A stretch of DNA of 63,918 bases, filler included, from Reclinomonas americana ATCC 50394 (GCA_048213135.1; 12 parts of 12 records of this genome joined end to end with filler, not necessarily neighbours in it); one strand, 5' to 3'; shown: positions 3,001 to 52,200, counted from the first letter of the whole stretch. The notes: a model not told the origin generated them from the sequence alone. Made by a program: numbers and translations.

Positions 3001-6000
3001 AACACGTGGAACGAGTCGTCCATGCCAGTGAACGGTCCGGTGAAAAACACCACACCCGCTGCATCATCATCCGACAGAGCATGAGGGCAAGAGAACAATT
3101 AACAGCTGTTGATAATAAAAGTGCATCGCACCGTCCTCGGCAAGAATGGTGAATTCGCGCGACCTGCCGCACACCTTCACATCGTCCATGTCGCACACAA
3201 GCATGTAGTAGCCGGAGCCGAGGGTCGCGTCCTCGGGGATCACCATCGAGAACTCGCCAGCAGCAGTGCGCACGTAGCCAATGAGGCCGTCCTGCGGAGA
3301 GTGAAGAAAGTTCAGCGAGAGTGCGAGAGAATGGCCCATGGAAGAGAGAATGAGAGCATCGATACTCACATCTGTGCCGAAGAGAATAGACAAGGCGACA
3401 AACTCGCTAACAGCGCCCATGACCTCCCAGCGCACAGACACGCGGTCACCAATGCGGGCCTTGAAGGAGCCGTTGGAGATGCTGCCAGGTCCGAAAACCG
3501 CAATGGACGACGGCACAGCTGCGCGCACCCACGACAGTGAGGAACACTGGAGAGAGAGAAACAGAGTTAATCGAGGAGCACAACGCACTGGCAGCGGCCA
3601 CGGCAAACGGCGGCGTCGTGTCTTGCACGTCATCGTCGCCATCCAGGGTCACACGAATGTAGTAGTTGGTGCCCGGCAACATGTTCTTGGCCACGAACAC
3701 CGAGAAAGCGCCGGCCTTCATCGGCACCGCACCGAGTGTCTCAAACTGCAACACAGACGTTAAGAGGCCGTTGCGCACAGGCACATGCAACAATAGTCTC
3801 GGAACTCACCAGCGAGGAGCCGTACAGCAGCTCGATCGTAAGCATCTGCGACGCCTCGCACGCGAAGCTGGACTCCCACGTCAGGTGGATGAGGTCGCCC
3901 TGCTTGAACGAGGTGTGCACGCTAATCGGTCCCGTCAAGTGCACAAACGGTTCCACTGCGGGTAACGATGAATGATGTGTGGCCAGGGCCGCGAGAGACA
4001 GTGTGGCACGCACCAACAGGATCGGTGACCAAGAACTCGTTGCTCGAAGTGCGCGTCGACTGCGTCACCAGCATGATGGAGTAGACGCCCGAGTCGAGGG
4101 TCGGCACCTTCCAGTCCATGTGGCCGGCGGCAATCGAACCCAGCATGAAGCCGAGCTGACACAGAAGTGAGTGCACAGAGAACAAAAACACATTCGCCAC
4201 GCTTGAGTGAAACAAACACACACCGGTTCGCCGTCCTGGACAAATACCAGCACAAATGCTGTGCCAACGTCGCCAAGCGCCGTCCACTTGATGCGCACCG
4301 TGTCGCCGACGTGCACCACGGCTGGAATCGGGTCCAAGATGACTGCAGCGCGGTCTGTGGAAGGGCGAAGGAGGATGAGACAGGGAGGGAAAGGGGGGAG
4401 AGAAAGGGGAAGGGAGAGCAAGGGGGAAGGGAGATGAAGGGAGAGGGAAAGGGAGGGGGAAGGAAAAGAGAAGTGAAGGGACAGGGAGGGGGAGGAGAGG
4501 TGAAGAGAAAGGGAGAGGAGAGAGAGGGAGGGAAAAAGTAAGGAGGGAATGTGAAAGTGTGTGCACGAAGGAGAGACACACTGAAAGAGAGAGAGGAGGG
4601 GGGAGAGAAAGAAGGGAATGTGAGAAAGTGTGTGAAGAAGCAAGTGAAGTGAACAGACAAGAGAAGACAAGGAGAACGAGGGAGTGAGAGTGTGTACGAC
4701 TGCGCATGCCGGCATCAATGTAAACTTGCGGGCAGCGGCACTCACCAATCACTTGAATGACGCCAACTTGGTGCAGGGTGCCGGTCTCGCCGAGCCTGCA
4801 AATCACAATAATGTGAGCCTACAAACAGCTCCCCCACACTCAGCATCCAGTGATTCGAACGAAACTTGACGCAGACCCAGGCACGGCCACCCTTGGTGCC
4901 CGGCGACATGGTAGCCTCCAGAGTGTCGTCGTCGACCACCTTGACAACGCCGAACTTGCCGAGCTCCGACCCGAGATCATCGTGGCAGCTGCTACCGCTG
5001 TCGGCAAGGTGCACTTCGTCGCCACTCGAGAAACCGTAGCCAGTGAACTGCACAGTAGTGGTCGTGGACGCCAGCACCGTCGACGGGCTGAAGTCAGTGG
5101 CGCCTGCGCAGATGCAAGAGGCAAGTTAGAAACAAAAAATGACAACCAAGCGTATTCTTGGACACGCACCGAGGACGAAGAAGTCATCAGCAATGACCCA
5201 CGACTTGGTGGTGTTGAACCTATCACGCGAAAAGAGAATGAGTGGAGAACTCGGTTGTCTTCCGTGACAGTGAGATTACGCACAAGACGCAGACGTGGAA
5301 CTCGCCCACGACCTCAAACGACAGCTGCACATTCAGCAACGCGTCCTTGGTCTCGACAATCTTGGCGTCGACACCTTCGGCGTTGTGGCAACCGCACGCC
5401 TGATGGTGCTCCACCACTGCGATGTCGATAACGTCTTCCAGGCTGCGCGAAATAATCAGAAGCTGGATTACTGCACTCGTGCGAGTATGTGTGTGTGTGT
5501 GAACGCAACCCAGCGCCATTAACGTCGACACTGAACGTGGAGACAGGGCTCGAGTCGAGCTCCACACGCAGAGGCGACACGCCCAGCACACCTGGCGAAT
5601 GAGTCGCGGTTAGCAGAGTGAATGACGTGAGGAACATGGAAGACGAAATGAACTCACCAGCCACCAGAATGCGCGCATAGGACACTGGAGCAGGCACGGT
5701 GGCATCTTGCATCCTGCAAGAGCACACACACATAGACACATTGTGCGTCAGCTTCAACCACACCAACTACAACGGTCCTTGACTCACAGAATGCAGAGCT
5801 GCACAGCACCGGCACCGTCGGCGGCGACTGTGGCCACCAGGCGCGTGCTGCTGACCACGCTGACAGACTGGATGGAGAACCATTCGGGAGCCGGATCCTT
5901 GCTGCAGTCGCCGTCACCCAGCACCGCCGACAGTTTGTCCGTGTCGCGGAATCCGACGCCGGAAATCGTCAGCATCGTCGGAGTCTTCGGCGGCACCATC

Positions 6001-9000
6001 TTAGGGTTGCACGTGGTGGTGCCTGAGCGAGGAATAAGAGCAGTGTGAGATGCGATAAGTAAGTGAAGGTGAGCACACAGCGGCAGATACGCACCCCACA
6101 CGGAAACTGGTCCGCCTGAAACCTTGACAAACTCGTACTCGCCTTCGGCCGTGTCGACGCTGCAGTGCGGTAGACGAATGAGGAGAGAAGGGAGGGAGGA
6201 GATCAGACAAAGAGGAGGGAGGAAGACAGAGGGAGGAAGAAGGAGAAAAGGAGGGAAGGAGAAAGCAGGAGAAGGATATTGCAAGAAAGATAGAGAACGG
6301 CGAAAACAAGAGAGAAGGGGAGACAGAAAGTAAAAGGAGAGAGAGTAAGATAATGCAAGAGAGAGAGAGAGAGATACAGAGACTTTCATCCATGCAAGAG
6401 ACGACGCACCCAAAGCACAGCGCAAACTCGTAGGCCTCCAACAAGCGGAACTCGATCTCGAGATGACCGGCAGCAATGTCGTTGACCTTGTCGAAAATGA
6501 CGTAGGTCAACTGGCCCTCCTTGTTCTTGTGGTGCTCGCACGAATCCTTGGTGGAGATCGCCAGCACCTCGTACTTGTCCTTTGCACTCGCCGAGTAGTG
6601 CACCGGCAGCTTGTAGATGGTGTTGGAGAAGGGCGTGGGGGCAAATGTGAGCGAGGCGTCTGTGACGTGAGAGTCGTGAGAGTCACGGCGAAGGAGGATT
6701 TTGCATCCAAAAAAAGGAACGCAACCGCCGAGCGTAAAGAGGTCAGTGGAGCTGGCATACTTGGTCGGCGCGGCCTTGTCGCGCAGAATAAAGAAGAACT
6801 CCGAGCCCACGTCGCCAGCCACAAAGTGTTGCGAGACATCGAGGGTGTACTCGCGAGCACTCGTCGGGATGGTGGCCAACAGCTTGGCCTGTGAAAGGGA
6901 GATGAGAGAAGGAAAGGAGGAGAAGGAAAGGATACGAGGCAAAGAAGAGATGGGAGAGAGACAAGGAGATGAGGAGGAATATAATACGAGGGAAAGATAA
7001 AAAAAGACGAGAAGGAGAAGAGAAGAGAGAAGGAACGGAGAAGAGAGAAGGAAAAGGGAAGGACAAGCAGATACGAGAAGGAAAAAGGGACGAGAGGGAA
7101 GCAACAAGAAGAAACAAGTGGTAAACCGAGGTCTACCAAATGAGACTCAACACGCACATCACCCTTTCTCTCATCCCTTCCCCATCTTCAAACGCAACAG
7201 TCGACATGTCGGCTCCAGCCGCACACGACAGCAACTCCAACGTGTCGGACACCTTGCTCGACGACACCCACTCCAGCTCGGTTTCGGCATTCAAGAACAC
7301 GGTGTGATAGTCCTCGCCAGGCACCGGTGCCAGCAGCGCAATGTTCTCGTTGATGATCATGAAGCGCGTGGAGACGTCCCACACCACCGGCTGCATGTCG
7401 AGCACGACGCGGATGGCATGCACGCCGGGGATCGGCGTCTCCGGCGCGACAAAGTCCACATGCAAATCCGTGGTCTCCATGGTCGGCAAGCCAACCGGCT
7501 TCAGCGTCACCGCATCCACCACGTCAACCAGCCACTTGAACTTGAGGCCCGGCGGAATGTTTAGCGTCGTCGTCCACGAAATGGTGTAGGTGGTGCCGGG
7601 AATGAGCACCGACGACACCGAGTCGGCGTCGATCGTGACCACACCTGCACGAAGCGCATGAGCGAAATGAGACACGACATTGTGGAGAAAAACTGGGGTT
7701 TGCTTCCTCACCAACAGCTTGCAGCTGCGGTGCCGTGATCACCAACGCCCACTTATCGTAGTCGGCAGGTGCGTTGCCCCGCTCCACAGTAATGTCGAAC
7801 TCCTCACCACCAGCCTTGGCCGCGAGCTCCACCATTTCCACGTTGTTGACCGAGTCGCGAGTCTGTGTGACAAGTGACATCAATCAACCATCATACATGC
7901 ATCAAGGCGTGCGAGACGAGTGACGCAACATTGCCATTCGCTTCGTGGTTACCAAACACCACGGAACCGTCGGCACGGCTCACCGACAGATCGAGATCGT
8001 AGGTCAGCGCCTTGGCGGCGGCGGGGTTGCCGGGGGCGTCGTACCACGCCAGCGTCACCTTGAACGCACCGCCGTACGCCTTTACGCGGACGTTGAAGGG
8101 CTCACCGTCGGCGCCCACTGCGCCAAACGGCATCTTGTTGATCGCAGCTAGGTTGAAGTTCGACTCGTCGCTGTCAAAAGGAGATGAAGGTGAGGAGTCA
8201 TACTGAGAGGAAGATGGTGAGCGATGTACGAACCGGAAGAAGAGAATGTTGCTCAGGTTAATTAGACCGAATCCCTGCTCCATGCTCGGGTAGGTGGTCA
8301 GCGGGCTGCCCTTGTCTGCACAGCGAAAGAGGGAGGGAGAGAAGGAGCAGAGTGAACATCGTGAGCGATCAAAGAGCGACAATGCAGACGAGAAAAGAGA
8401 AAGAGGATAAACACGAACCACCAATCTTGCCGCTCATGCGAGTGCCAGCGTGCACCATCATGGCCTTCATCAGTGGACCATTGATGTTGGAGGTCAACCC
8501 CTGCGCGAGAGAGAGACAAAGGAAACAATAAGTGGAATGGCGTGCACGAAGAGAGGAAGCTGCATATTGCACGCAACAGGAATCTTGCGGCCGGCTGGGT
8601 AGTATCCGTCGGTAAAGTACTGGCGGACGAGGGTGGCGGCACCGGCGGCAACCGGAGTGGCCATCGAGGTTCCTTGCATGGCTGTGACGCGCAAAGCGTG
8701 AGGTGACCGATAAAAGAGAGGTACTTCACGGAAGTCACGCACCGTGGACACCACAGTTGTTCGTGGTGACGTCGCCGTCTGAGTAGGCGCTGAGGACGTA
8801 CATGCCGGGGGAGACAATGTCGGGCTTGATGCTGTGCGAGGAGGAGGGTGAGCGACAAATGAAAGAGATGGAAAGAATGATACTCTCTCCAACTCACCGC
8901 CCGTCACCAGTCGGTCCGAGGCTGGAGAAGTAGGCCAGATCCTCGATCGAGGAGCCGGCGGGCAATGGCAGAACGCGAATGGTGCCGGAGAAGAGCTCCA

Positions 9001-10481
9001 GTCGGTGTGGGGGGTTAACCGACAGCAGTTCGCTGAGAGGCGAAATGAGAAGAGGGAAAAGAGGGGAAGAGAAGGAAGCCAAGGTAAGGGAGAGAGGAGG
9101 AAGGAAGGGGAGAGGAGGCGGGAAGGGGAGAGGAGGAAGGAGGGGGAGAGGAGAGGGAAGGACGAAGGAGAAGCAGTGACGGCAAAGGAGGAGGAGCAGC
9201 GCAAGCAGTGACGGCAAAGGAGGAGGAGTAGCGCAAGCAGCGACGGCAAAGGAGGAGGAGCAGCGCAAGCAGCGACGGCAAAGGAGGAGGAGCAGCGCAA
9301 GCAGCGACGGCAAAGGAGGAGGAGCAGCGCAAGCAGCGACGGCAAAAAGTGGAGGAGCAGCGCAAGCAGCGACGGCAAAGGAGGAGGAGCAGCGCAAACA
9401 GCGACAACAAAGGACGAGAGGCAGCGGCAAGAAGCGACGGCAAGGGAGGAGCAGCAGCGCAAGCAGCGACGGCAAAGGAGGAGCAGCGGCGCAAGCAGCG
9501 ACGGCAAAGGAGGAGCAGCGGCGCAAGCAGCGACGGCAAAGGAGGAGGAGCACCGCAAGCAGCGACAACAAAAGGAACGCACCGAATGCGAGCCGCCGAC
9601 GAGAGACCGATGCTCAGACCCGGGATGGTGACCGCTCCCATGTCGTCGCCAATCATGCCAATCGTCGTATCATCGTAATTGATGATCAGCACGGCCTGCA
9701 TCGAGAAATGCAATGATGAGAGAGGTGGGGTGGAATATAATGCCGCGCTGAGTGCTGCACGAACCACCGCGCCAGCAAGCTGTGCATTCTTGAACTTGTC
9801 CACGAAGGGGCAGTTTCCGCGCTTGATCATGGCGATCTTGCCGGCAATGGCCGCACCGTTCACAATCGGCATGCAACCTGTGGTGCGACATCAATAGTGG
9901 TGAGAGGCGAGAAAGACATCCAAGACGGACAAACCATCGACGGGATCCGAGTCAGCAATGCCCACTTGATCGAGGAACGGCTTCGTCATCAGGTTGCCAC
10001 CGAACTGCGCAGCGCCAGCAGGAATCGAGAGGAATGCGTTGCGCGAGGCACCGACACCTGTAATGGCGGCGTTAGGCGGTTACCCTCTCGCACACACACA
10101 TTTCCAACACAAGTCGGGGACGCAACCGATCACGTTCTTGGAGGTGGCCGGGCCGCCGACACTGTGAGCACCCCTGGCTCCCGCGTTGCCGTTGGCGACC
10201 AGGAAGGTGGCGTCCGAGTTCTCGTACAGCCAGCTGTCAATGTCGCGCTCAAACGTGCTGTACGAGTTGTCTTCGTCGCCCCACGATGCCGAGAAGATGC
10301 GTGCGCCGTCGTCGTAGCTGCGCTGCAACAAATCGTTGCCCACATCCTCCGGAATCGACAAACCCTGTGCGCGAATGCGTGAGAAGAGGTGTAGTGGAAG
10401 ACGGACATTATGATGCAATTACTACACAACTCCACGATCATCGCCGACGTCCTCGAAGCTGACCTTGGCCTTGTAGGCCAC
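57..10481 (-). CDS. Giant multi-exon S8 subtilisin-like serine protease (KP-43/TagC type) with inserted PA domain, long beta-sandwich-repeat stalk, one C-terminal TM helix and short cytosolic tail; 5' end lost in the gap
   Basis: Spliced exons give ARIFSASWG, FLVANGNAG, GPATSKNVIGVGA, PA motif GKIAMIKRGNCPFVDKFKNAQLAGA, FSSLGPTGDGR-IKPDIVSPG, catalytic Ser motif MQGTSMATPVAAG, QGFGLINL and VTLAWYDAPG..YDLDLSV..NNVE. Many repeats of the type GD.V.I.W..YSWTIP.DL..G..Y.. follow. TM exon AAVLVAVIAGILTVAVVAFFVL at about 245-323; stop TGA at 57-59. That the whole span is one gene is inferred. Confidence 0.85.
9172..9572. repeat. Intronic minisatellite, about 32-bp unit (CGACGGCAAAGGAGGAGGAGCAGCGCAAGCAG), about 12 copies
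   Basis: Head-to-tail copies with no unique spacers, inside a subtilase intron. Confidence 0.9.
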
Positions 10482-10581
10482 NNNNNNNNNNNNNNNNNNN
10501 NNNNNNNNNNNNNNNNNNNNNNNNNTTAATTAATTAANNNNNNNNNNNNNNNNNNNNNNNNNNNNNNNNNNNNNNNNNNNN
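10482..10581. other. Artificial contig spacer (44N-TTAATTAATTAA-44N), first of 11
   Basis: Identical 100-bp blocks at 10482-10581, 15183-15282, 17533-17632, 27844-27943, 30335-30434, 37449-37548, 40865-40964, 44072-44171, 53474-53573, 60543-60642 and 62339-62438. The 12-mer puts stops in all six frames. Confidence 0.98.
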
Positions 10582-10597
10582 AGAGAGAGAGAGAGAG

Positions 10598-10644
<47 letters not shown>

Positions 10645-10929
10645 CTCGCGTCAAGTGAAGCGAGATCCGCAACAAACATGTCTGAAGTTTAGGGCTCATA
10701 AGAAAGGCAGAGAATGGAGGGCAAAGAGAAGGAGCAGCAGTTTAGGGACATAAGTGAGACTGGTTTGTAGGAGAATGAAGAGTGTGTGTGAGAGAGCAAT
10801 ACAGGTAGCGAGAAGGAGCGACAATTGATTGCACGAGAGTGTATTGTCAGAGAAGGAGTCACTGGAAGGCGAGAAGGAGAAGCAAATGAGTGCAAACGCA
10901 GGGGTAGACTGGCAGTGAACAGATCAACA

Positions 10930-12815
10930 ATGGAGATGCTGCGAGATTTATGTACATTTCTTCTGCACATTGGGAAGTGACTGCTTGTCTCTGTCCCTTG
11001 TTCTCTCTCCCTTACTCGCCCGTCTACGAATCACAGGTCAAGAACAAGACAGCCGCAAGGCCGAGGTGGAGCAACTGCAGCAGCGTGTGGCGGAACTCGA
11101 GCAGCAACACCGTGACGACATGCACAAGCTGGCCACCGCCGACGGGCTCAAGTCGCAACATCAGATCGACACGCTGCGCGCTGAGTTGATGAAGGCCAGG
11201 AGGCAGGTGGTCGAGGGCGACAATCTGCTGGCTGAGCACGAGAACACCATTGCGGAACTGCGTGAGCAAGTCGAGGCTCGCAAGAGCGACACGGAGAAGC
11301 TGAGGCGCGCCAATGGCACGCTGACGGCCAACATTGATCACTTGCAGCGGAAGAGTGTGGATCTCACGAGTCAGGTGGTGGCACTCGAGGAGAAGCTGAA
11401 GGCGTTTGGAGATGTTGGTGAGTGGAGAAGTAGGAGGGGAAGGGGAGAAGGGGAAAGGGAGAAGTGTTGCGAAGGGAGGGGTGAATTCGAAAGATGAAGG
11501 GGAGAAGCAGAGACAGTGCCAGAGAGAAGTAGAGGGTGAGGGGTGAGGAGTGAAGAAATGCTGAGGATGGAGGTAGGAGTGAGAGTGAGAGTTGAAGAGA
11601 TGCAGTGGGGGGCCAGAGAAAGGAAAGGAAAGAAGTGAAAGGCCAGTGGGGAAGGAGAGGAAGGAAGGAGGGAGAGAAGGGGAAAAGGGAAAGGGAAAGG
11701 GAGGGAGAAGGAGAGAGAAAGGGTAGGGCTGAGAACTGGAAAGTGAGACGACCGAGAGTAAGGCTGAAGGATGGATGGAGAGGACGAAGGGAGAGGGTTT
11801 AGGGGAAAGAAGATAGAGGAGAGAGGGAAGGAAATGAGATGGGAATGGCCGACTGCAGAGAAGAAATCAGAGACAAGGTGCATTTTATTTGCCTCTGTTC
11901 CTTCCAAGAGGATCGCTCACCTTGTGACATCCCTGCAGTGCGTGAGCGCGACGAGCTGCTGGAGGAGCAGGATGTGCTGGTCGACGAGCTGCAACGCATG
12001 CAGACGAACTTGGCGAAACTTCGTTGCGTTTGTGTGTGTGTGTGTGATCACCACGCTGTACGTGCGTGCCGACTGACTCCTCTCTTCTCCACTCCCACAG
12101 AACAAGAGCGACAGGCGGGTCTGGATCGCAAGGCTGCGCAGCTGGCCGCCGAACGCGACAATGCCATCAAGGAGCGCGACGAGTTGTCTGTGCGGCTGGC
12201 GTCGCTGGATCGCACTCGGCGCCGTGAGCTGGCCGAGGCCGAAAAGGCCAGCAAGGAGTATGCCAGCGTGTTGGCGGTACACAAGGCCAAGCAGCGTGAG
12301 CTGGACACGCAGGTCTCCGACCTGTCCATGTCGCTGGGCGATCGTGAGGAGTCGCTGGCCGCCACGGCGGAGACACTCGCCGCCAAGGCCCAGGCCATTA
12401 AGCAGCTGGTGAGTTGTCGTCTTCTCTTTGTGGAGCGTGAGCTGCGCTAAATCGCAATTCAACGCCATCACAGCAAACGGAGAACGACGAGCTGAAGGAG
12501 CGCATTGTGAGGATGGAGGAGAAGCACGAAAAGGTGGTGGCCGCGATGAAGTCTTCGCGGCTGAAGAAGACCATTCGTGTCACCGAGGACATCCAGGAGC
12601 TCGATCTCGTGTCGACCGACGACGAGGCCGAAGATGAGGACGGCAGCGGCAGCAGCCAGCCGCCAGAGACCGAGACGAGGTCGCACACGTACCTGACGCA
12701 GGCACGATTCATGTCGTCGCTCGCTCCCAATGCCACGGCCGCGGCGCCGGTGAATCCGTTCCAAAACCGTGCGGCGGCGGCGGCAGCGGCCTCTCGAGGC
12801 ACTCGCAAGCCATGA
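10930..12815 (+). CDS. Multi-exon coiled-coil protein of unknown function
   Basis: Exons at about 11037-11417, 11938-12022, 12101-12408 and 12473-12815 encode heptad-rich sequence (AEVEQLQQRVAELEQQ..., ERDELSVRLASL...) ending in an acidic/low-complexity tail. The start codon is uncertain. Confidence 0.7.
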
Positions 12816-13027
12816 ACAGAGCGTGGTGATAATAATTTGCTGGTGAAGGAAGCACCGTTTTTGAGATGACGCATTAAAGGATGGAGATATTTTATCACAT
12901 GATGGATGGTGACAACGGCGACACAGAGAATAAGAGAGGGAGATAGGGGACGGAGCTCAACCGTTCACTCTGTTGCCTGCGCCGTGCAACAGGAACGAGG
13001 AGTCGGCCACCATGGTCCTGTGTACAT

Positions 13028-27457: not shown

Positions 27458-27595
27458 GATCTGACAACGCAGCAACACAGGACAAGTGCCTGAGAACGAA
27501 GCACAGACGCACTGTTGGTGCAGAGGTGTGTGTGTGTGTATGTGTGTGTGTGTGTGTGTGAAGTTGTCCTCTGTTCGATATCTTGTATTGCTTGC

Positions 27596-30500: not shown

Positions 30501-31115
30501 TTCATCACCCGACGACGGCGTCTTGCCGCCAGCCGCTCACCCAACGCCGACTTTGAAAGACTGGCAGGCGCCGCCGACGAACCCGTCTTTGATCGTGTCT
30601 TGGAACCTCCTCCTCCTCCTCCTCCCCCACCACCTCCAGTTGACGACGGCAGCGCGAATGTGCAGCGACACGAAATCACGGGCGATCTGCAGGCGGAGTG
30701 GGAACGCCAGTTTGACGAAGAGGACGCGCCAGTGTTTAAGCAACGAGTGCGTGTCTGTCGTCGCACACCTGCGACCCTTTCCCTGTACCAACCAACGCCT
30801 ATCGCACAGGATGAGTTCGACATGTTTGCTCCCACGTCACTGCCGCTTGACAGCAAGGCGCTGGCCAGGTTTGTTCTTGCACGCCATGTCGTCGTGGATG
30901 CGGTGATGTTTCGCTCACCGGCTCGCAGCTTCCGCAAGTCACCATCGCGCGGTGACCCGTCGGAAAAGTCACACTCGCTCCCGCAAGCGGATTACACGTT
31001 TTCGGTGCGCATGTCGTCGCCGACGCCTCCCACTGACTGGGCCGGACCGCTGCGACAGCAGCATCAACTGCAGCAGGCGAGGAAGGCCATAGCCGCGTCG
31101 AAACCAGCACCGTGA
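27596..31115 (+). CDS. Multi-exon hypothetical protein (short TPR-like segment, one hydrophobic segment, Pro-rich region); spans two gaps
   Basis: Exons MSAAAQSVVERALQRVL.., ..LPEWVLEFEFCGL, ..AYVAEYPDCHLGHLSRA.., HVRAADSVKRALELTEEGSPLVLYHAGLFLLQ, ..LAAVCSAAAA / LLFHFITRRRR.., ending at the stop at 31115. The exon joins are inferred. Confidence 0.5.
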
Positions 31116-31389
31116 TGAAGCATGCAAGATTGGGGCGACTCGTGGTGCTCAAGAAACTGCAGCGCCCAGCGGTGTTCCGTGCTGGCAAATCAGCGCGGCG
31201 AGAAGAGGGCCATCATGAGCAGGTCCTCTTCCGTGAAAGGCCTCTGGCCCCACAGTCACCTAATACATTTTCATTTCCGAGCGCGGACGGGTTGGTTTTT
31301 CTCCCCCCTCATCCCCGCTGCTCACCATCTACACTGCCTAAAACCCCCGAACCCTCCTTAAACAAGAAAGAAAAAACACTCAACTACTA

Positions 31390-34300
31390 TTACGATCGAT
31401 CGGAGGCGCGTAGCAGTGCTGGCGAGTCGTTCTTGTGGTGCCGCCGAGGCGACGGTGAGAGCGACACGCCACGCACATCGTCGTCTGAACCATGTGCGTC
31501 GTCGTCTTCCTCGTCGGACTTGGTGTGGATGAGCGTCGCCATTTCCACGTCGTGCTCGTCCGTGGCTTTTGCTGTCGGTGCTGAGGTCGCCGTACGGGCC
31601 GTCGACGATGAGGATGACTCGGTAGTACCGGCCGCCGCCGCCTTGTTGTCGCGGTAGGCTGCATACAGGTTGATGAAGAGACCGGCGATGACCAGCAGTC
31701 CGCCGAGGCCTTGCAGCAGGCTGATGACGCTGCCGAAGACGAAGAACGAGAGAATGGCGGTGCCGACAGGTTGCAGTGTCTGTGGCGAGCGCGTGTGAGG
31801 AAAGAAGGGGCGCGCGAAAATGAGAGAGAGAGACGGAATCGACGCAACCCAGTAGCTGGAGGCCACGGATGCGGTGACCGATTTGAGGCACCACGCCAAC
31901 ACCACGTTGTTCACAATGGCGATGGTGATGATGTAGCTGGTGGGGGGGGGGGGGGGGGGATTGGAGGGCAAGGGTGAGGGAAGGAGGACAAGGTAGAGGG
32001 ATGGACGACAAGGGTGAGGGAAGGAGGGCAAGGGTGAGGGAAGGAGGGCAAAGGTGAGGGAAAGACGGCAAGGGTGAGGGAAGGACGGCAAGGGTGATGG
32101 AAGGAGGGCACGGGTGAGGGAAGGAGGGCACGGGTGAGGGAAGGACGGCAAGGGTGATGGAAGGAGGGCAAGGGTGACGGAAGGAAGACAAGGGTGAGGG
32201 AAGGAGGGCAAGGGTGAGGTAAGGAGGACAAGGGTGAGGGAAGGAGGGCAAGGGTGAGGGAAGGTGGGCAAGGGTGAGGGAAGGAGGGCAAGGGTGAGGG
32301 AAGGAGGGCAAGGGTGAGGGAAAGTGGGCAAGGGTGAGGGAAGGAGGGCAAGGGTGAGGTAAGGAGGACAAGGGTGAGGGAAGGAGGGCAAGGGTGAGGG
32401 AAGGAGGACAAGGGTGAGGGGAAGGAGGGCAAGGGTGAGGTAAGGAGGACAAGGGTGAGGGAAGGACGGCAAGGGTGAGGGGAACGGAGCCACGCAGATC
32501 GCTTCTCGATTATCAAGCGCACTTTCCGCACACCCTTCCTCACACCCTTCCTCCATTCCCCTCCCCCATGTTCTCACTCCGGTGTCTCCACTCGTCTCCG
32601 GCTGCCAAGCTCTCCGTCCCTCACACTCCCTTCCCCTTTACCCCCATCCCACACTCACCCAAACGCCACCATCGCCAGCGAGTCCAACCCTCCCGTCCAA
32701 AACGTATTGTCGAACGGGATCAAGTACGGAACCGCCAGGAAAGCATAACCGAACCAGCTCAGGCCGTAGTACCTGCGACGCAAAATGAATGTGAGGACCT
32801 CGGAGGACGTGTCACACGAGGCAGGCGACTCACAGTGCCGTGAACGACGGTGCGGCAAAGACGCGCAGCGGGAAGCGCTGGCACACCAGCAAGCCACCCG
32901 TGCACATGCACTGCAGCAGGATGATAGCGTTGCCGAGCAGTGGGTTGCTGGCCGGCTGTGACTCGCTGGCCGAGGCCGAGAAGAGCGAGACCAGTGTGGC
33001 GCCGCACACGGAGAGCAGAATCGACACGCCCTTGAGCCAGGCAAAGCGCTCCTGACGGGCGATGATGGAGAAGATCGTCGCGAAGATTGGGATGGTGGGT
33101 TGCATGACCGAGGCCTGTGAGGTAAGGGTAAGGGGAGTGAGGAGGGGAATAGGGAAGGGGAAGGGGAAGGGGAAGCAAGGGAGGAAGGAAAGAAGGGTGA
33201 GTTAAAAGGGGAGGCGATGTGACGAGAGATGCAGAGAGTGCAAACGATAAGAGAAGAAAGACAGAAGCCGGAAGGAGACAGCGAGAGAGAGAGAGAGAAA
33301 GCGAGAGATAATGAAGGGGAGAAGGGGCAACAAGAAGGAATGAGCCATGAGGGAAGCGGAACAAGGAATAGGAGGAGAAGGAGAAGAGCGAGACCGTACA
33401 AAATGATACATGCAATGACGGACACAGAAAGGGAAAAAGGACAGAGAGAGAGAGAGAGAGAGTGGGAAGAATAACACGGAGGAAAGAGAAATGAGATGGA
33501 GGGCAGACAAAAACAAAAGATACCGAGGAGGCAGAAGAGGGACTGACGGGGAGAGCAGAGAGCACAGAGGAGATCGACCGATCACTGAAGCGAGCCAACA
33601 GAAGCGAGAGGAAATAATCAATGACCAGGGCGAGACACATGCGACAGCAAGAGGTAAAGAGAGAAGAAAGAGAGTGGGGAGGAAAGGGACGCAAGATGGA
33701 GGGAAAGTACGAGAGAGATGGAGGCAGAAAGGCGAGTCAACGTGAGACGATAGAAAACAGTCAACGACCAGCACCAGAAACATGCGAGAGCCCTTGATCC
33801 TCAACTCACGGGCATGCGAACGCAACATTAAACGCCGTGGTGTACCGCAACGCCAGTGTGAAGCCGTACTCTTGAATGGCCATGAAAATGGCGCAGATCA
33901 GGACCCACATCCACCCGCCACTGCGCAAGCGACACACGTCAGTCAGGCACAATCCAGTCATCAATTCCATTACAAGAGCAACGAAACTTGCCCCTCCAGC
34001 CCTTGGGTCTTCGCTGCATGGTGGTGTGGCGATCGGAGATGAATGCCACCGCTACGAGGCCGACAATGGCAATTGCACGAGCTGTGAAGGAAGGGAGCAA
34101 AGTGAGAGCAGTGAGGGGGAAAGGTTGAAATCGGAAGAGACAAGAAGTGGGACAGTGAGAAAGAGAGAGAGAGAAAAACAGCCGGCAGAGAGGAACACGA
34201 GAGAACTGGAAACAGTCAGACGAGCACAATTGGGAATACAGAGGAAACAGCGAAGAACTGAGACAACGAGTGAGAGGAAAGGAAGAAGGAACTGCAGAGA

Positions 34301-35175
34301 ATGAAAGAAACAGCAGAGGAACTGACACAACATAGGAAGGACGAGGGCGAGGGAATATGACATTGAGAGAGGAGAGTACGAGTGCAAAGCACAATAGGGA
34401 ATGCAGAGGAATACACAGAAGAAGAGACAACGAGAGAGAAAGCACGTAAGAGGAAAGGAAGAAGGAAAACTGCAGAGAACGGGGGCAACAGAGGAACTGA
34501 GACAAACAAAATAGGAGGGAAGAGGGCGTGGGATAACACTGAGAGGAGAGTTCGAGCGTACAACTGCAGACGAGTGCACAGCACAACAGGGAATGCAGCG
34601 AAGAAATGAAGGAAAACAGCAGAGGAGGGAGGACGCCACTGCAGACAAGCGCAGAATGAACAAGAGACTGATGGAGGCAAGTGAGAGCAACAAGCGAGAG
34701 ACGACAACAGCTTGCCACAGACATGAGTGTATGAGAGACAGAGAAGAGAGAGCATGACAAGAGAAGGCATGACAATGCAACACTCAGTGATGGAGAGGAA
34801 TCATAAGATCGCATCCACAAACGCAACTCATCACAGTGAACGCCAATGGATTCACACCGCCACTCAGTGCGATCTTGCCAAGAATGTGCTGCACACATAA
34901 CAAACAGAGAAAGAGAGAGAAAGAGAAGACACAGTGAGTGAAATCGCATCAGTTGGTGACAACAACATGACATGCTGCGTGTGTGCAAAAGACAGAGAAA
35001 GAGAAGATGAACAAAGGATAAAGCGTCGCCTAGTCACTGTCTCTTTGTGTGAGAATGCATCTCAGCTGCCCTTCTCTCTCACAGTGTGTGTGAGTGTGTG
35101 TGTGCACTCAACAAAACCCGATGAATCCAGTTGCACAAGGGCAATGGCGATGTGTGCCACTGCTGTGCGCCACAT
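31390..35175 (-). CDS. EamA/DMT-superfamily transporter (WAT1/nodulin MtN21-like)
   Basis: Spliced: MWRTAVAHIAIALVQLDSSGFHILGKIALSGGVNPLAFTVMTRAIAIVGL..., GFTLALRYTTAFNASVMQPTIPIFATIFSIIARQERF..KGVSILLSVCGA, LLGNAIILLQC, ASVASSYWTLQPVGTAILSFFVFG..GGLLVIAGLFINL. About 10 TM helices. Confidence 0.88.
31966..32481. repeat. Intronic 20-bp minisatellite (AGGGTGAGGGAAGGAGGGCA), about 25 copies
   Basis: Head-to-tail copies inside an EamA intron. Confidence 0.92.
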
Positions 35176-35953
35176 TGTTGTTTTTTTACACAAAGAGAGA
35201 ATGAGAAGAGAAAGAAAGGTGCTCTCTGGAGAGTGATAAGATGCGTGTTAATTGGGCTTGTTCTTGCCTTTTTCGTCGACTAGCTTCGTGCCAAGTGGGC
35301 ACACTGAGAGGTTCTGTATTGAGTGCTGCTCGTGGTGGAGGAGAAGGAGAGGCTGCTTGAGGAACAAAAAGAAGCAGCAGCCGTGTCGCAAGTGGTTCGA
35401 AGCTTCGAAGTTCGGTTTCATGCTTGCAGTTGCTTCGAATTCACTGCTGTGCGTGCTGGCCACAAGCCTCCAGTGTGAGACTTCCGTGCTGTCGCTAGCC
35501 AACAGGTGGGTAGCGTGCATCTCGAGCTCTCGAAAGACATTGCTGCAGTCGACCGCGACGTCGACGTTCACTTCGAATTCCTCCGGATCCGGATCCGCAG
35601 CCCTCCGAGCTTTGCTGCAAAGCCCCATCGACTTGGAGGTCATCGTGGTATGCACGTACACTGCTGCTATGTGTGCACTGCGGTCAAAGTCAAGGTGGCA
35701 CACGTCCCACATGAACGTCGACGTCGACAGAGGAATCAAGTGAGAGCAGAAGAATCCACACGCACACGCACACACACACGCGCACACACATACGCACACA
35801 CACGCAACGACGACGATAATAGAAGCAGGAGGAAAAGGAGAGACACACACACACATTCCTTCCCTCCTCTCTCTCTCTCTCTCTCTCGATGGACATGGAT
35901 TTTCTCTTCCTGCTGGCGGCATCATATTCAGAATTCGCTGCGGCGATGGCGAC

Positions 35954-37448
35954 ATGGGAGGCTGGAGGGACGATGTCGCAGTGGAACTCTTTGCCGAGTG
36001 CGAGCGCAACTTCACTAAGCTTCTCGGCGCGCACAATGAGAAGTGGACGGTGTCGTCGGCAGTCAATCACATCTCATGTCTGATGTTGTCTGCCGATCAC
36101 GTGCGTGCTCTTCCGCGCCTTGAGCAGTTGACGACGCAATACCGCCGTGTTTATGGCGATGAGCACCGAGTGACAATGTTTGCGAAGTGCGCAGTGGGCC
36201 GCACATTGTTTAGAGGGGGTCGACGCACGGAGGCTTTTGCTCTGATGCGTGGCACGGTGGAGAAAGTGCTGCGCTTACTGCCCGAGGACGACCAAATGGC
36301 GTTATCGTCCATTAGACTCTTCTCGGAAGTGCTGCATGCTGCACGTTTGTTCGAGGAGGCTGTTGACATCGATCGTGCCGTGCTGCGGAGAGACAAGTTC
36401 ATGGATGACGACCAAAAATGCAAAGCCTGTCACAGCCTTGCAATTGCTCTCGTGGGAGTCGGCGGTGCGGCGAACTTGAATGAGGCTCTGGTAGTTTACG
36501 AGCGCGCTCTCAACGGATTGAGCAGTCTGTATGGTGACGACCATCCTGGCAAGATGGCAATGACGTGCGAGCTCGCTGGCGCACTGTGCAAGCTTGAGCG
36601 GTACGGCGAAGCTGTTGATCTGTTGCGCGAGACATTGCAACGTCAAAAACGTGTATTGTCGGAAGGTCACGTGCAGACGCTGAATACGATGCGCAATCTC
36701 GCCGAAACTCTGTTGCTCACAGCCGACTCGGGCGATGCTGTTGCAATTGGACGCGAGGAGTTGGAACTGGAACGCAAGTTGCACGGTGACGAAGACGGTA
36801 GGACAGTTGCAAGCGCCTTTAGCCTTGGCGGGTACCTTCTCACCGTCGGTGGCGACAGCAATGTGGCGGAGGCTGTTTCTGTACTTAAGGATGCACTTGC
36901 GCGGCAGAATCGGCTCGCTGGTTCGGACAGCGAGGCGGCTCTTACAATAGCAAGATTTCTTGGTGCCGCCCTCGTCCAGGCTGGTCGACCTGAAGATGCT
37001 ATTGAATTGCTGTCCGAGACTTTGGAACGGCTGAAGCGATCGCGCGAGCCGAATAGCGACCTCATGTTGCAGATCTTGGACGACCTCGCGGATGCGTATG
37101 GAGCCTGTCAGAACTACGAAGAGGCTGTTCGAATCGGACAAGAGCTTCGAATCCATCAACAGCAGAAGCTTGGCGATGATGACCTGGAATTGTTGCGCTG
37201 CAATCACAGACTTTCATCCCATGTCTTTCAACTTGGTGGTGTGGAGAACTTTGCGGAGGCGGAGCGCCTGCAAGAGGATGTCGTGTGCCGGCGCGAACGG
37301 CTGCTTGGTCTGGACTATAGTGCGAAGGAAATCGAGACGCAAGAGCTGCGGTATATCCGTGCTGTTCTTGAAGATGCTCGGCGCAGGGAGAGAGCGCAGT
37401 CACGCCCGACGCAGAACCGCATGATAAGGAGACGGAGAAGAAGAAGAA
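35954..37448 (+). CDS. Intronless TPR region (42-aa kinesin-light-chain/TPR_12-type repeats, about 11); probable N-terminal part of kinase-RING copy 1
   Basis: Repeats such as YGDDHPGKMAMTCELAGALCKLERYGEAVDLLRETLQRQKRVL. The frame is open up to the gap with no stop. An alternative start at 35889 lies in another frame. Confidence 0.85.
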
Positions 37449-37548
37449 NNNNNNNNNNNNNNNNNNNNNNNNNNNNNNNNNNNNNNNNNNNNTTAATTAA
37501 TTAANNNNNNNNNNNNNNNNNNNNNNNNNNNNNNNNNNNNNNNNNNNN

Positions 37549-49211: not shown

Positions 49212-52200
49212 TGTGCAAGTTTGTTTGTGTGCATGTTGTGACATGTCGGCCTCCTCTTGTTTGTGTTTATGTTGTTATTTATGCAGAGATTGCATACTTG
49301 TTGGTGTATGGGCGACTTCCGACGCGGAATGAGTTGGACGAGTACATTGTGCGATTGGCGCGATTTCGGTACTTGTCGCCGGAGTTGAGGCATATGCTGG
49401 AGTTGTTGCCGGCGGCGTCGCATCCGATGGTGCGTGATGGAAGGGGAAGGAGAGAGGGCACGGAGTTGAGGGGGTGCGCGGGGAGATAAGTGAGGCTGAT
49501 GCACTATGACTGTTTCACTGGTGCATGTGAAGAGTAGTGGGAGAGGCTGTGTTTGCATTCAGCGTGACACACTGTTGCAAGCTGGGAGATTGGGTTTGTT
49601 GTCAGTGGGGCTCTGCAGAATTCGGATTCCTGATGTGTCAGCGAATCGATATGTGGAGTGATGCGAGTAGGAAGTGAGTCGCATTGGGCGGAGTAGTCAG
49701 TGAGCTGTGGAGAAATCCATGCTGTCTTCAATCGTGACAGTGGTGCAAGCGTGACGTGTGGTCCGGGAGGGCAGTGAGACTGATGCAGCATGAGAGTTGC
49801 AAGTTACGAGTGTATTGTCGCTCCGGCGGAGGGATGTGCAGTCCTGCACAGCGAGAATGATGCAACAGGAGTTGTAGAGCATCGCCTAGCAGAAGTATGC
49901 TGGCAGTGAGGCGGAGAAGTGAGTGAGCTGTCGAATCGGTGAGGGAAGTGAGTGTGCCAGTTGTGCAAGCTAGGATAGACACGATCACTGGGGCTATTGT
50001 GAGACAGAAGCAGTAAGAAGCAGAGAGAGTCCCTGCCGACTGTCTTCTCACTACTTTTGCAAGCTGGGAGATGGGATTGGTGGTCGCTGGGTTTGAGCAG
50101 AATGCGTGAGCGAGTCTTTGCAACACACCACCGAGAATGAGATGTGTTGTGTAATGCGGCAGTGGAGAATCGATGCCTGCTGTAAGTACTTGACAGTTGC
50201 CAGCTGGGAATGTGCGGTCGCAGAGGGCTTTGCAGTGAGATTGTTGTAGATGGTGGGAAGAGAATCGATGCCTGAGTTCTCCATTGATGCAAGTCACCGT
50301 GACTCGCTCACTTGCCTTCCTTCCTGCTTTCGCTCATGACTTGCTTTCTCAGGACGTGTTGCGTACGGCGGCGTCGTTCCTCGGTTGCTCGGAGCCAGAA
50401 AATGCTGATCGTTTGGTGTCGAGTGACGAGGGTCTGTCGCAGGTGTGTGAGTTTGTATTTGCCAGCGCGCTGCCTTCTATTCCCGCTTATCGCTCACTCC
50501 TTCCTTCGCAGTACGATGTGGCTGACAGTCTGATGGCGCGCTTCGGTCCGGTGAGTTCTGCTCGATTGCCTACGCTTGCCATCTGCTTTGTCGCTGAGTG
50601 CAGCACCTTTTTTGTTGCAGATCATGCTGTACTGGCATCACTACCACGAGTCGGGTGTGCGCATCGAGACGCGCACTGACGAGAAGGACACAATTGCTAC
50701 CAATTTCATGAAGCTGTTGAAGCGCTTGCCAGCAACCGAGGAGGTTTGTTCACCGAGAGAAAGGGGGAAAGGAAGAAGGGGAAAGGAAGAAGAGAAAAAC
50801 GTCGCGGTTTCTCCCGTTGCACGTTTCATTTTAGGGAGCTTCTTCGTCCTCCACTATTCTTGCGTCGACTGTCTGTTTTCTCATCGTCTTCTTTGGTTCC
50901 GCTCTCTCTCTTTTGTTTCTCGACTTGCTTCCGTTCATCCCCTCTGTGTGTTACGTGAGTGATGGGTGAACTGTCCGCAGTCGAAAATCGACTTGCCAAC
51001 GCTGTGAGAGCCAACGCAATGTCTTCCAAATGGCGAGACTGGCATTCATGTCTCGGCTGTTATCCTGCGCTCCCAACATGTTGCTCCGTTGATCAGTGCG
51101 CCTTCGCTCTACTGCGATGTCTTCACCTAGCCTCTCCCTTTTGTGTCTGTTTTTCTTTCCATTTCTCCTCCCCTTTCTCCTTCCCGCATCGCGTCCCCCA
51201 TCGCTTCCCCCTGTTCCTTCCTCCTGTTCCTTCTCCCATCGCTTCCCCCATCGCTTCCCCCTGTTCCTTCCCCCCGTTCCTTCCCCCTCCTCCTTTCCCC
51301 TTCACCCTTCTCCGTCCGTTTCTCCGTCCCTGTCTCCGTCCCCCTCCTCCTTTCCCCTTCCCCCTTCACCCTCCTATCCCCACTCACTCACTTTCCTCGC
51401 CGACGCTCAGCCCGACGCCCTCTGCGTCCGCGTGGTGGACATTTCTCTGATTCTCTACGCTGAGCACGAATTCGCCGGTGAGTTGCACTCTCCCCTCTCC
51501 CTTCTCTCTATCCCCCCTCCCGCTCATACCCCTGACCGCCCAGCATCCACCTTCTCGGCACGCGTCACCGCCTCCACCCTCTCCGACTTTTACTCGTCCA
51601 TCACTGCCGCCATTGGCACCCTCCGCGGCCCGCTGCACGGCGGCGCCAACGAGGCCGCCATGCACCTCGTGTCGCGCTTTGCGAATGCCGAGGAGGCCGA
51701 GGCTGCCGTTGCGTAATTCTCTCTCACCTTCCACCACACCTCACGCCCATGTGGTGTTGATGTCTGTCTGTCACAGGTAATGGAAATGCTGCGCAAGAGG
51801 GAGTTGATCATGGGCTTTGGCCATCGCGTCTACAAGACCTCGGACCCGCGCACCACCATCATCAAGGACTGCTCGCGCCAGCTGGCGGAGCGCCGCCCCG
51901 AGCAGGGCGCTTGCCCGGCTCTCTACGCTGTCTCCGAGCGCATCGAGCACGTGATGAGCCGCGAGAAGAAGATGTTCCCCAACCTGGACTTTTACTGCGC
52001 CAGCGCCTACCACCAGTGCGGTGAGTGCAGAGCGCTCGTGTCTGTGGGCGAATGAGTGACTGACTCGCTGGAGCAGGCATTCCCACCAATCTCTTCACGC
52101 CGGTGTTTGTGGTGGCCCGCACCTCCGGCTGGGCCTCGCACATCATTGAGCAGCGCGCCAACAACCGACTCATTCGGCCATCGGCGCTCTACAATGGTGC

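Follow-up and report, generated by a model that had tools for sequence, protein, structure and literature searches.

GTTGCGT as a displaced 5' splice-site signal in roughly one fifth of Reclinomonas americana introns, with a variant U1 snRNA gene that appears to fit it

Introns beginning with GTTGCGT recur in a window of 63,918 nucleotides from Reclinomonas americana ATCC 50394 (GCA_048213135.1; the whole stretch analysed, made of 12 parts joined with filler) and raise the question of whether such a donor is a genuine signal, where it is cut and what reads it. A preliminary description of this window had proposed that GTTGCGT is a major donor class in which the conserved G+5/T+6 is displaced to +6/+7, and had suggested a variant U1 or U6 snRNA or a relaxed recognition mechanism as a cause. 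Fourteen GTTGCGT sites, one GTTGAGT (35112) and one GTTTCGT (33987) had been named; all 16 words lie at the positions and on the strands given for them. The corresponding introns are as follows (the slash marks the proposed cut; blind posteriors are those of a donor-blind gene model).

5443..5509, minus strand: intron with G/GTTGCGT donor at 5509, subtilase-family gene (blind posterior 0.97)
6660..6725, minus strand: intron with G/GTTGCGT donor at 6725 (blind posterior 1.0)
7863..7929, minus strand: intron with T/GTTGCGT donor at 7929 (blind posterior 0.9; missed by the homology aligner)
8501..8577, minus strand: intron with T/GTTGCGT donor at 8577 (blind posterior 0.93; chosen by homology in just 1/3 profiles, with another acceptor)
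10058..10126, minus strand: intron with G/GTTGCGT donor at 10126, Peptidase_S8 domain (Pfam S8; homology in 3/3 profiles; blind posterior 1.0)
12023..12100, plus strand: intron with C/GTTGCGT donor, unnamed gene (blind posterior 1.0)
31780..31848, minus strand: EamA intron with G/GTTGCGT donor (blind posterior 1.0; open frame)
33115..33826, minus strand: EamA intron with T/GTTGCGT donor (blind posterior 0.92; open frame)
33921..33987, minus strand: EamA intron with A/GTTTCGT donor (blind posterior 1.0; sole open donor of 6 within 18 nt)
34082..34827, minus strand: EamA intron with A/GTTGCGT donor, the least secure (open frame, 3 in-frame alternatives; blind posterior 0.2)
34889..35112, minus strand: first EamA intron, T/GTTGAGT donor (sole open donor of 4 within 18 nt; blind posterior 0.13)
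39466..39544, plus strand: intron of kinase copy 1, A/GTTGCGT donor (HRDLKPAN frame restored)
42566..42646, plus strand: equivalent intron of kinase copy 2 (frame restoration)
45859..45939, plus strand: equivalent intron of kinase copy 3 (frame restoration)
48917..48983, plus strand: 2-methylcitrate synthase (PrpC) intron, T/GTTGCGT donor (homology: YRGYNIS^DLANN vs YRGYDIE^DLAAH)
51708..51776, plus strand: PrpC intron, C/GTTGCGT donor (homology aligner, junction free of gaps)

Extra donors of the same class, absent from the preliminary description, were called at the following positions, the first five within 323..4865 and the rest within 7198..56934.

397 and 4865, minus strand: GTTTCGT donors, subtilase-family gene (second-pass posterior 0.98-1.0)
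1179 and 1302, minus strand: GTTGCGT donors, subtilase-family gene (second-pass posterior 0.98-1.0; blind 0.88 and 0.98)
2283, minus strand: GTTGCGC donor, subtilase-family gene (second-pass posterior 0.98-1.0)
7198, 10430, 13085, 14581, 15117, 21918, 22179 and 52959, minus strand: shifted donors
54478 and 56870, plus strand: shifted donors

Across 590 kb covered by the donor-blind gene model (L016, L053 and most duplicate loci left out; L071 and L101 overlapping in part), GTTGCGT is the top 7-base donor, with 85 of 738 sites against 2.3 predicted from independent positions. G+6/T+7 are found in 123 of the 273 donors with T at +3 vs 22 of the 465 others (Fisher P 2e-40). Both the major class and its displacement, as first proposed from the window, are borne out in the genome sample. 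An unsupervised mixture recovers an nna/GTTGCGT class with a weight of 0.21-0.26 (BIC 18187 vs 19211 with one class), and the shifted class makes up about 18-26% of introns. Both donor classes are present in 42 of the 51 loci having at least five blind-called introns, and shifted and ordinary introns adjoin within genes (114 mixed neighbour pairs). Shifted donors carry G at +4 in 84-86% of cases (A in 2%) and C at +5 in 91-94%, with no excess of A at +8. Within the window, 29 of 97 introns in a donor-aware second pass and 18 of 71 in the blind pass belong to this class; GTTGCGT occurs 32 times vs 11.8 expected from an order-3 Markov model (GTCGCGT 8, GTAGCGT 4 and GTGGCGT 11 times), 11 of these 32 words being uncalled or weakly called as donors. 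GTTGCGT is a real, displaced donor signal in roughly one fifth of the introns of this intron-rich genome.

Protein homology places the cut of shifted introns before G+1. The protein-to-DNA aligner was used with intron ends restricted to GT/GC..AG; a run with free ends was set aside, its junctions having slid by 1-4 nt because intron ends are redundant. The Prp8 set leaves out its nine last calls (beyond homologous sequence), two others within the proline-rich start, and the duplicates L100 and L096. Seven of the 29 homology-anchored introns are shifted, and those of Prp8 and PrpC show GT..AG ends with the cut before G+1, as in U2-type introns. Invariant Prp8 junctions (THQ^RHD, KLW^NLN, MDL^CQV, NLT^TKP) exclude both a GC donor and a G/TT cut, because either would change or add a residue in 4/4 cases.

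Among the named donors, the aligner picked 48917 and 51708 as well as 10126 (3/3 profiles), the only one that subtilase homologs (~45% identity) settled; in weakly conserved parts, 8577 was chosen in 1/3 profiles with a different acceptor and 7929 in 0/3. The PrpC call at 50416 falls within a weak region; its true position is probably 50443, and the donor is ordinary either way. The blind posterior is 0.9-1.0 for 9 of the 16 sites (5509, 6725, 7929, 8577, 10126, 31848, 33826, 33987, 12023) and at most 0.2 for the other seven (34827, 35112, the three kinase sites, and 48917 and 51708, these last two supported by homology). A search for EamA homologs was blank; a model using all five named EamA donors keeps the frame open for 394 aa, 35112 and 33987 being the sole GT/GC within 18 nt to do so, and in-frame alternatives exist at 34827, 33826 and 31848. 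The kinase sites restore HKHNVIHRDLKPAN via two 4-nt micro-exons (at 39545 and 39639 in copy 1, whose next exon gives a Pkinase match); the frame is equally kept there by a GC donor 3 nt downstream, and the three introns, being tandem copies of one intron, count as one event. The degree of support therefore varies among the 16 named sites.

An artefact could arise from a true cut lying elsewhere, whether just after the first G, at the GC at +4 or at the GT at +6, or from a mixed assembly in which two organisms each contributed a U1 gene. The GC donor 3 nt downstream is indeed always in frame and the assembly includes foreign DNA (scaffold C1 looks bacterial), but the Prp8 junctions discard the GC and G/TT cuts, use of GT at +6 disrupts the reading frame in both the EamA and the kinase tests, and both scaffolds bearing U1 genes carry both intron classes, the U1 paralogs having long words in common; an artefact is therefore extremely improbable.

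Membership of the shifted class is linked to the final base of the exon, a feature absent from the preliminary description. G occupies exon -1 in 15 of 134 shifted introns vs 341 of 408 ordinary ones, and in 0/7 vs 21/22 of the PrpC and Prp8 introns; T occupies it in 32-34% of shifted introns, and 11 of 85 exact GTTGCGT sites are still preceded by G. The rest of the intron resembles that of ordinary U2-type introns: lengths cluster at 64-73 nt in both classes, CTCAC is the top branch word in both, a branch-like motif (loose, and taken without a chance control) is found in 100/134 shifted vs 276/408 ordinary introns, and the acceptor is CAG in 93% vs 92%. C at acceptor -4 is avoided by shifted introns (4/135 vs 50/408, P 3e-4).

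The very uniform 7-base start and clustered lengths could mean that these introns descend from an intron-generating element and owe their likeness to copying. Ordinary introns have equal lengths, however, and an all-against-all comparison of 200 short shifted introns gave a single pair with a 25-nt match, which joins two overlapping copies of the Prp8 region. Likeness thus stops at the intron ends, a recent burst is largely refuted and descent from such an element is very unlikely, an old and decayed burst being still conceivable. The minor (U12-type) spliceosome likewise serves a separate donor class, present in the same genes and read by an snRNA of its own; its introns have an RTATCCTT donor, an extended branch site and U11/U12 genes. 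Shifted introns differ in donor and branch words and have 3' signals in common with ordinary introns, and their candidate reader belongs to the U1 family (RF00003). A search for U12 genes was blank, a weak result, and U12-type identity was rejected on the donor and branch words.

The window itself yielded no Rfam family. Elsewhere in the genome, two U1 types were found, with a canonical arm (AUACUUACCUG) and a variant arm (AUACGUAACUU).

G000:C429:9347-9500, plus strand: variant U1 gene, outside the window
C479:4310-4463, plus strand: second copy of the variant U1 gene, outside the window
G000:C343:5715-5887, minus strand: canonical U1 gene, outside the window

The variant arm ACGUAACUU departs from the canonical arm ACUUACCUG by U5G, C8A and G11U. 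No base is inserted ahead of helix H, and the change, made up of substitutions alone, implies a shifted register rather than a base added to U1. Both genes align over the full length of RF00003 (variant 64.0 bits, positions 1-166, E 3e-14; canonical 63.7 bits), under the gathering threshold of 69.5 bits. The variant has helix H, SL1-SL4, the SL1 and SL2 loops and the Sm site, and helix H (4/4 pairs) and the upper SL1 stem (6/6) form in both paralogs with different letters. Its two copies are identical although their loci diverge by 3-6%. Upstream lie snRNA-type elements, CCCACAA at -66 and GAGTGAC at -39, which have counterparts at comparable distances before both U2 types (background ~0.03 per 100 nt, for a motif picked by eye). 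The word CCACAA, at -62 to -70, is also found before both U2 types and one U6, and upstream of U5. The variant gene therefore looks intact and apparently maintained, and its expression and use may be inferred from sequence. A search for the U1-C domain (PF06220) was blank and uninformative, and a metagenome scan for C8A-armed U1 gave 65 loci, none convincing by stem, SL2-loop and Sm filters.

The predicted U1 gene complementary to GUUGCGU was thus found, the variant arm pairing 7/7 with this motif one base out of register. Shifted donors are bound better by the variant arm in 131/135 cases (median -8.5 vs -1.6 kcal/mol for the canonical arm) and ordinary donors by the canonical arm in 343/408 (-5.8 vs -3.5 kcal/mol for the variant), a contrast that is partly circular, unlike the mixture result, as the rule defining the shifted class resembles the complement of the arm; the energies ignore pseudouridine, cap and proteins. 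Only 6 of 493 random arms with three substitutions match the performance of the variant. On ordinary GTGCGT donors the two arms are about equal (-5.0 vs -5.4), and the division of introns between the two U1 may thus not be strict.

Alternatively, recognition of the shifted class might fall to the canonical U1, working in a shifted or bulged register as at rare human sites, or to proteins, the variant being idle or minor. Normal human U1 is described as working in such registers (PMC4856993, PMC9311317), ~6.4 of 11 pairs are open to the canonical arm once it is shifted, and the variant arm leaves the preference at +4 unexplained: A would pair better with arm residue U6, yet G predominates. T at -1 is likewise unpairable by arm residue U10. 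However, the median canonical duplex on shifted donors reaches only the -1.6 kcal/mol given above, with two internal mismatches, and such a reading explains neither the near-fixed C at +5 nor why a structurally conserved paralog has altered exactly the bases that repair these mismatches. It is considered unlikely.

The other half of the initial suggestion, a variant U6, found no support: three U6 searches of the gapped assembly returned the same three loci, each with a canonical ACAGAGA box, and all U2, U5 and U6 genes found have canonical recognition sites. The family search for U5 was blank; a loop pattern later gave 29 matches, of which 17 were read, yielding two U5 genes, and 12 on scaffolds C1 and C2 were left unread. 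Shifted donors form only 0.20 of 4 pairs with the U6 ACAGA box in the normal register and 2.25 if shifted by one, close to the 2.32 of ordinary donors; they thus lack the in-register G+5/U+6 pairing of U2-type introns. According to PMC11162779, cleavage was in every case observed 5 nt upstream of the +5G:U6 pair, barring a -1 case, which counts against the explanation proposed below.

This mismatch could suggest a second spliceosome branch, in which the variant U1 has dedicated partners: a variant U6 that escaped the searches, a further RNA (a U2-like copy, for instance) or proteins. The assembly is gapped and U5 escaped the family search, two U2 types exist, a U2-like copy deleted for its branch-recognition core could pair 6/7 with the motif through its 5' end, and the avoidance of C at acceptor -4 would fit. 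This 5' end binds both donor classes alike, however (-6.5 vs -6.3), the three U6 searches agree on the same loci, there is a single Prp8 gene (two copies 97.6% identical, with 671/750 residues equal to the homolog consensus), and lengths, branch word and CAG ends agree between classes. A separate branch thus seems improbable.

The division of labour between two U1 and the U6 loop-out are inferred, and a major (U2-type) spliceosome in which canonical and variant U1 split the introns is the best explanation and a probable one. The process can be viewed as follows. The canonical U1 (arm AUACUUACCUG) would read ordinary G/GTRNGT-like donors by pairing its C9 to the final G of the exon and its C8 to G+1. 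The variant U1 (arm AUACGUAACUU) would read /GTTGCGT one base out of register through C9-G+1, A8-U+2, A7-U+3, U6.G+4, G5-C+5, C4-G+6 and A3-U+7, and its U10 and U11 could pair exonic A. C8A would remove the mismatch that canonical U1 meets in the shifted register, and U5G would account for the near-fixed C+5. C9 would always face G, exonic in the ordinary class and intronic in the shifted one, which would free shifted introns from the exon-end G requirement. Cleavage would stay before G+1, and ordinary U5 and U6 would then take over the site; in the likeliest arrangement, G+6/U+7 would face the ACAGA box while a single intron nucleotide is looped out.

Related systems differ on several points. 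Human +1 shifted-register sites (Roca and Krainer 2009, as presented in PMC4856993, PMC9311317 and PMC11162779) also have their consensus one base into the intron, a cut before GU and a U1 helix shifted by one, as demonstrated through suppressor U1, but they are rare and use the normal U1, non-canonical registers together making up ~1.5% of sites (PMC11162779); here, the class reaches 18-26% of introns, with a tight motif and a U1 paralog that seems to fit the shifted register. U1 arms altered to fit atypical donors are described in Entamoeba (ACAAAC for GUUUGU) and Mastigamoeba balamuthi (ACGUAC, with the same U5G), with one changed candidate per species and in the normal register (bioRxiv 10.1101/2022.06.08.495308), whereas here canonical and variant U1 coexist and C8A would move the register. 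According to the same preprint, Physarum polycephalum has standard and modified (ACAUAC) U1 variants, hence two arm types in one genome, but with a single in-register change for GUAUGU, and its account of the variants mentions no shifted class. A division of 5' splice sites into AG//GUNNN (U5 side) and NN//GURAG (U6 side) likewise has one class leaning on the exon-end G and the other on a stronger intron motif (PMC11732430), but there a single U1 pairs with both in the same register, the difference lying at U5/U6, whereas here the class lacking the exon G is displaced and fits a U1 of its own. No report of a GTTGCGT class with such a U1 arm was found in a literature search that covered few subscription papers or supplements to preprints, and a description may exist in a genome paper or its supplementary files.

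On balance, we lean slightly towards two working U1 snRNPs, the second having evolved as a natural suppressor for +1-shifted donors, with a cut six bases, not five, upstream of the G pairing with an unchanged U6 ACAGA box, in about one fifth to one quarter of introns and thus thousands of sites, the last exon base largely deciding which U1 is used. U1 duplication has been presented as a plausible but unused route to non-canonical splicing in tunicates (PMC13326754, 2026); this route seems to have been taken here, and a one-base path between the classes is suggested by G/GTGCGT vs /GTTGCGT. Standard gene finders may misplace many donors in the Reclinomonas americana lineage. What is a rare exception in human appears, from the genome sequence, to be routine in this organism, with its own reader. 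It bears on how the position of the cut is set as U1 recognition gives way to U5/U6, by providing many natural sites that uncouple U1 register, exon-end G and U6 register, together with a candidate dedicated U1 that could be selectively blocked.

All 16 donor motifs listed by the preliminary description (14 GTTGCGT, one GTTGAGT and one GTTTCGT) are present at their places in the window, which comes from an intron-rich eukaryote (GC 55% in the window; assembly of 108 Mb in 16,441 pieces). GTTGCGT occurs 32 times in the window versus 11.8 expected from an order-3 model, and 307 times in a 590-kb genome sample versus 122 (order 3) or 218 (order 5). The N gaps of the window (e.g. 10482–10581) hold a TTAATTAATTAA linker.

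A gene model was self-trained on 590,215 bases from 201 gap-free pieces, the composition being held flat over positions +3 to +10 of the donor, and donor calls were counted at a posterior of at least 0.8. In this donor-blind model, GTTGCGT is the top 7-mer donor, with 85 of 738 GT donors versus 2.3 expected from independent positions, the excess on which the preliminary description had staked the class. The word is called as a donor at 118 of its 307 occurrences, GTAGCGT at 0 of 23, GTCGCGT at 3 of 82 and GTGGCGT at 0 of 139. An unsupervised mixture gives two donor types, naG|GTgnGt and nna|GTTGCGT, the second at weight 0.21–0.26. By rule, 134 of 737 introns from the blind model belong to this shifted class; once a donor model was added and the training repeated, the count was 217 of 913, a figure not independent of the blind result. 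The blind model has errors, as it missed both 48917 and 51708, which are supported by homology.

These two donors are among the 11 introns found in the 2-methylcitrate synthase gene PrpC by a self-written spliced protein aligner that charges GT and GC donors alike, requires AG, and is blind to the bases beyond. The first PrpC intron (48777–48836, plus strand) has a GC donor following CAG. The conserved part of Prp8, fetched from the assembly (671 of 750 residues identical to the homolog consensus), has nine introns, four beginning GTTGCG, and its upstream part nine usable introns, one beginning GTTGCGT; shifted donors thus make up 7 of the 29 homology-anchored introns of both genes. Prp8 also shows another likely GC donor and an exon of 13 nt with a GTTGCGA donor at its end. 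In the subtilase gene (minus strand), donor 10126 was picked in all three profiles, and the same three settled neither 8577 nor 7929. That the class is an artefact is extremely improbable. At four tested Prp8 junctions whose residue columns are 93–100% conserved, a cut after the first G (acceptor slid), or one at the GC 3 nt downstream, changes a residue or inserts an extra one. The shifted class is confirmed as real in the window and the genome sample.

Some observations concern the genes and the assembly themselves. Prp8 carries an intein-like insert (L050:3–632 on scaffold C729, also in locus L051; Hom_end match at E 4e-4, just under the cut-off) that ends in VTHN immediately before CPKELGG. 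Prp8 pieces alternate in orientation on scaffold C728, which points to mis-oriented contigs. Scaffold C1 (L053, 2.3 Mb; GC 48%, no microsatellites, long ORFs over 98%) is probably bacterial DNA inside the assembly, and scaffold C2 exceeds 1.6 Mb. The window holds a tandem gene whose domains were read from sequence, the domain scan covering the kinase exon only:

~37550–46950, plus strand: tandem gene in three copies, each combining a kinase domain with a coiled-coil-like stretch and, at the C-terminus, a RING-like stretch rich in cysteine
39545–39548 and 39639–39642, plus strand: two consecutive 4-nt micro-exons that complete the kinase motif before HRDLKPAN
42647/42742 and 45940/46033, plus strand: further copies of this micro-exon pair

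The shifted class reads T+3, G+4 (84%), C+5 (94%), G+6 and T+7 (85%). At −1 it has A in 39%, T in 34%, C in 16% and G in 11%, versus G at 84% of ordinary donors; this non-G rule is not absolute, as G precedes 4 of the 14 listed GTTGCGT sites. The two classes agree, or nearly so, in median intron length (67 versus 68), branch word and CAG acceptor; 42 of 51 loci contain both classes, which alternate inside genes. In the genome sample, C at acceptor −4 is scarce in the shifted class (4/135 versus 50/408), a small unexplained 5'–3' coupling. A recent introner burst as the source of shifted introns was ruled out because these introns are unlike one another in sequence; an origin from old introners is very improbable.

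Three U1 loci were found in the assembly, and a shared-word search found no fourth gene. Those on scaffolds C429 and C479 encode the same RNA in loci 94–97% alike and are therefore probably two haplotypes. Their variant 5' end, AUACGUAACUU, differs from the canonical one of C343, AUACUUACCUG, by U5G, C8A and G11U, with no insertion relative to helix H; the two paralogs have different letters in helix H and SL1, with full pairing in each. The variant U1 shares upstream words with U2, U5 and one U6 locus, and the region upstream of the canonical gene lies inside an assembly gap. The variant arm can form seven contiguous pairs with GUUGCGU, one of them a wobble, placing C9 on G+1. Computed duplexes on shifted donors give −8.5 kcal/mol for the variant versus −1.6 for the canonical arm (variant better in 131/135), and on ordinary donors −3.5 versus −5.8 (canonical better in 343/408); on GTGCGT donors the arms are about equal. 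The variant U1 quite probably reads the shifted class and the canonical U1 the G|GT class; that the canonical U1 alone serves shifted donors is unlikely.

U1 pairing explains neither the marked preference for G at +4 nor the step after U1. All three U6 loci have ACAGAGA intact (two fully identical to the third by alignment); of the variant U1 or U6 proposed earlier, a variant U1 gene was found and a variant U6 was not; the interpretation as a whole is supported with corrections, as judged from sequence. U5 has two copies with loop GCCUUUUAC, and U2 two types (L092 versus L093/L094, with 85% likeness over the 5' part and divergence beyond it), both with GUAGUA. About 1 kb from a U2 gene lies a diverged U2-like copy (L094, minus strand, ~2480–2735, scaffold C371) with shared upstream words and without the branch-recognition core, whose 5' end could form 6/7 pairs with GUUGCGU yet binds both donor classes alike. 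Against canonical U6, the shifted class forms 0.20 of 4 pairs in the normal register and 2.25 when shifted, the ordinary class 2.32 in its own. One intron base lying past the cut and ahead of the U6 helix would then be looped out, the alternative being an unseen component; an undetected helper RNA or second U6 has a low probability.

Taken with a variant U1 as the probable reader, the shifted register works like that described in human (PMC4856993, PMC9311317), but differs in frequency and in the presence of a matched U1 gene, as far as the consulted parts of these papers go. According to the portions consulted of bioRxiv 10.1101/2022.06.08.495308, Entamoeba and Mastigamoeba possess co-evolved U1 arms and Physarum two types of arm, each of them using the normal register, whereas the register here is shifted; Fritillaria has two U1 versions with identical 5' ends (PMC13326754, in part), and the part consulted of PMC10158995 adds nothing further on U1 variants. 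The exon-G trade-off resembles the U5/U6 donor classes in the sections seen of PMC11732430. A search outside which subscription papers and preprint supplements lay found no published report of a shifted class combined with a matching U1. The account in PMC11162779, in the part consulted, gives a single −1 case of U6 register, in human STAT3, the distance being fixed at 5 bases in all others; judged by it, a routine +1 U6 register would be new.
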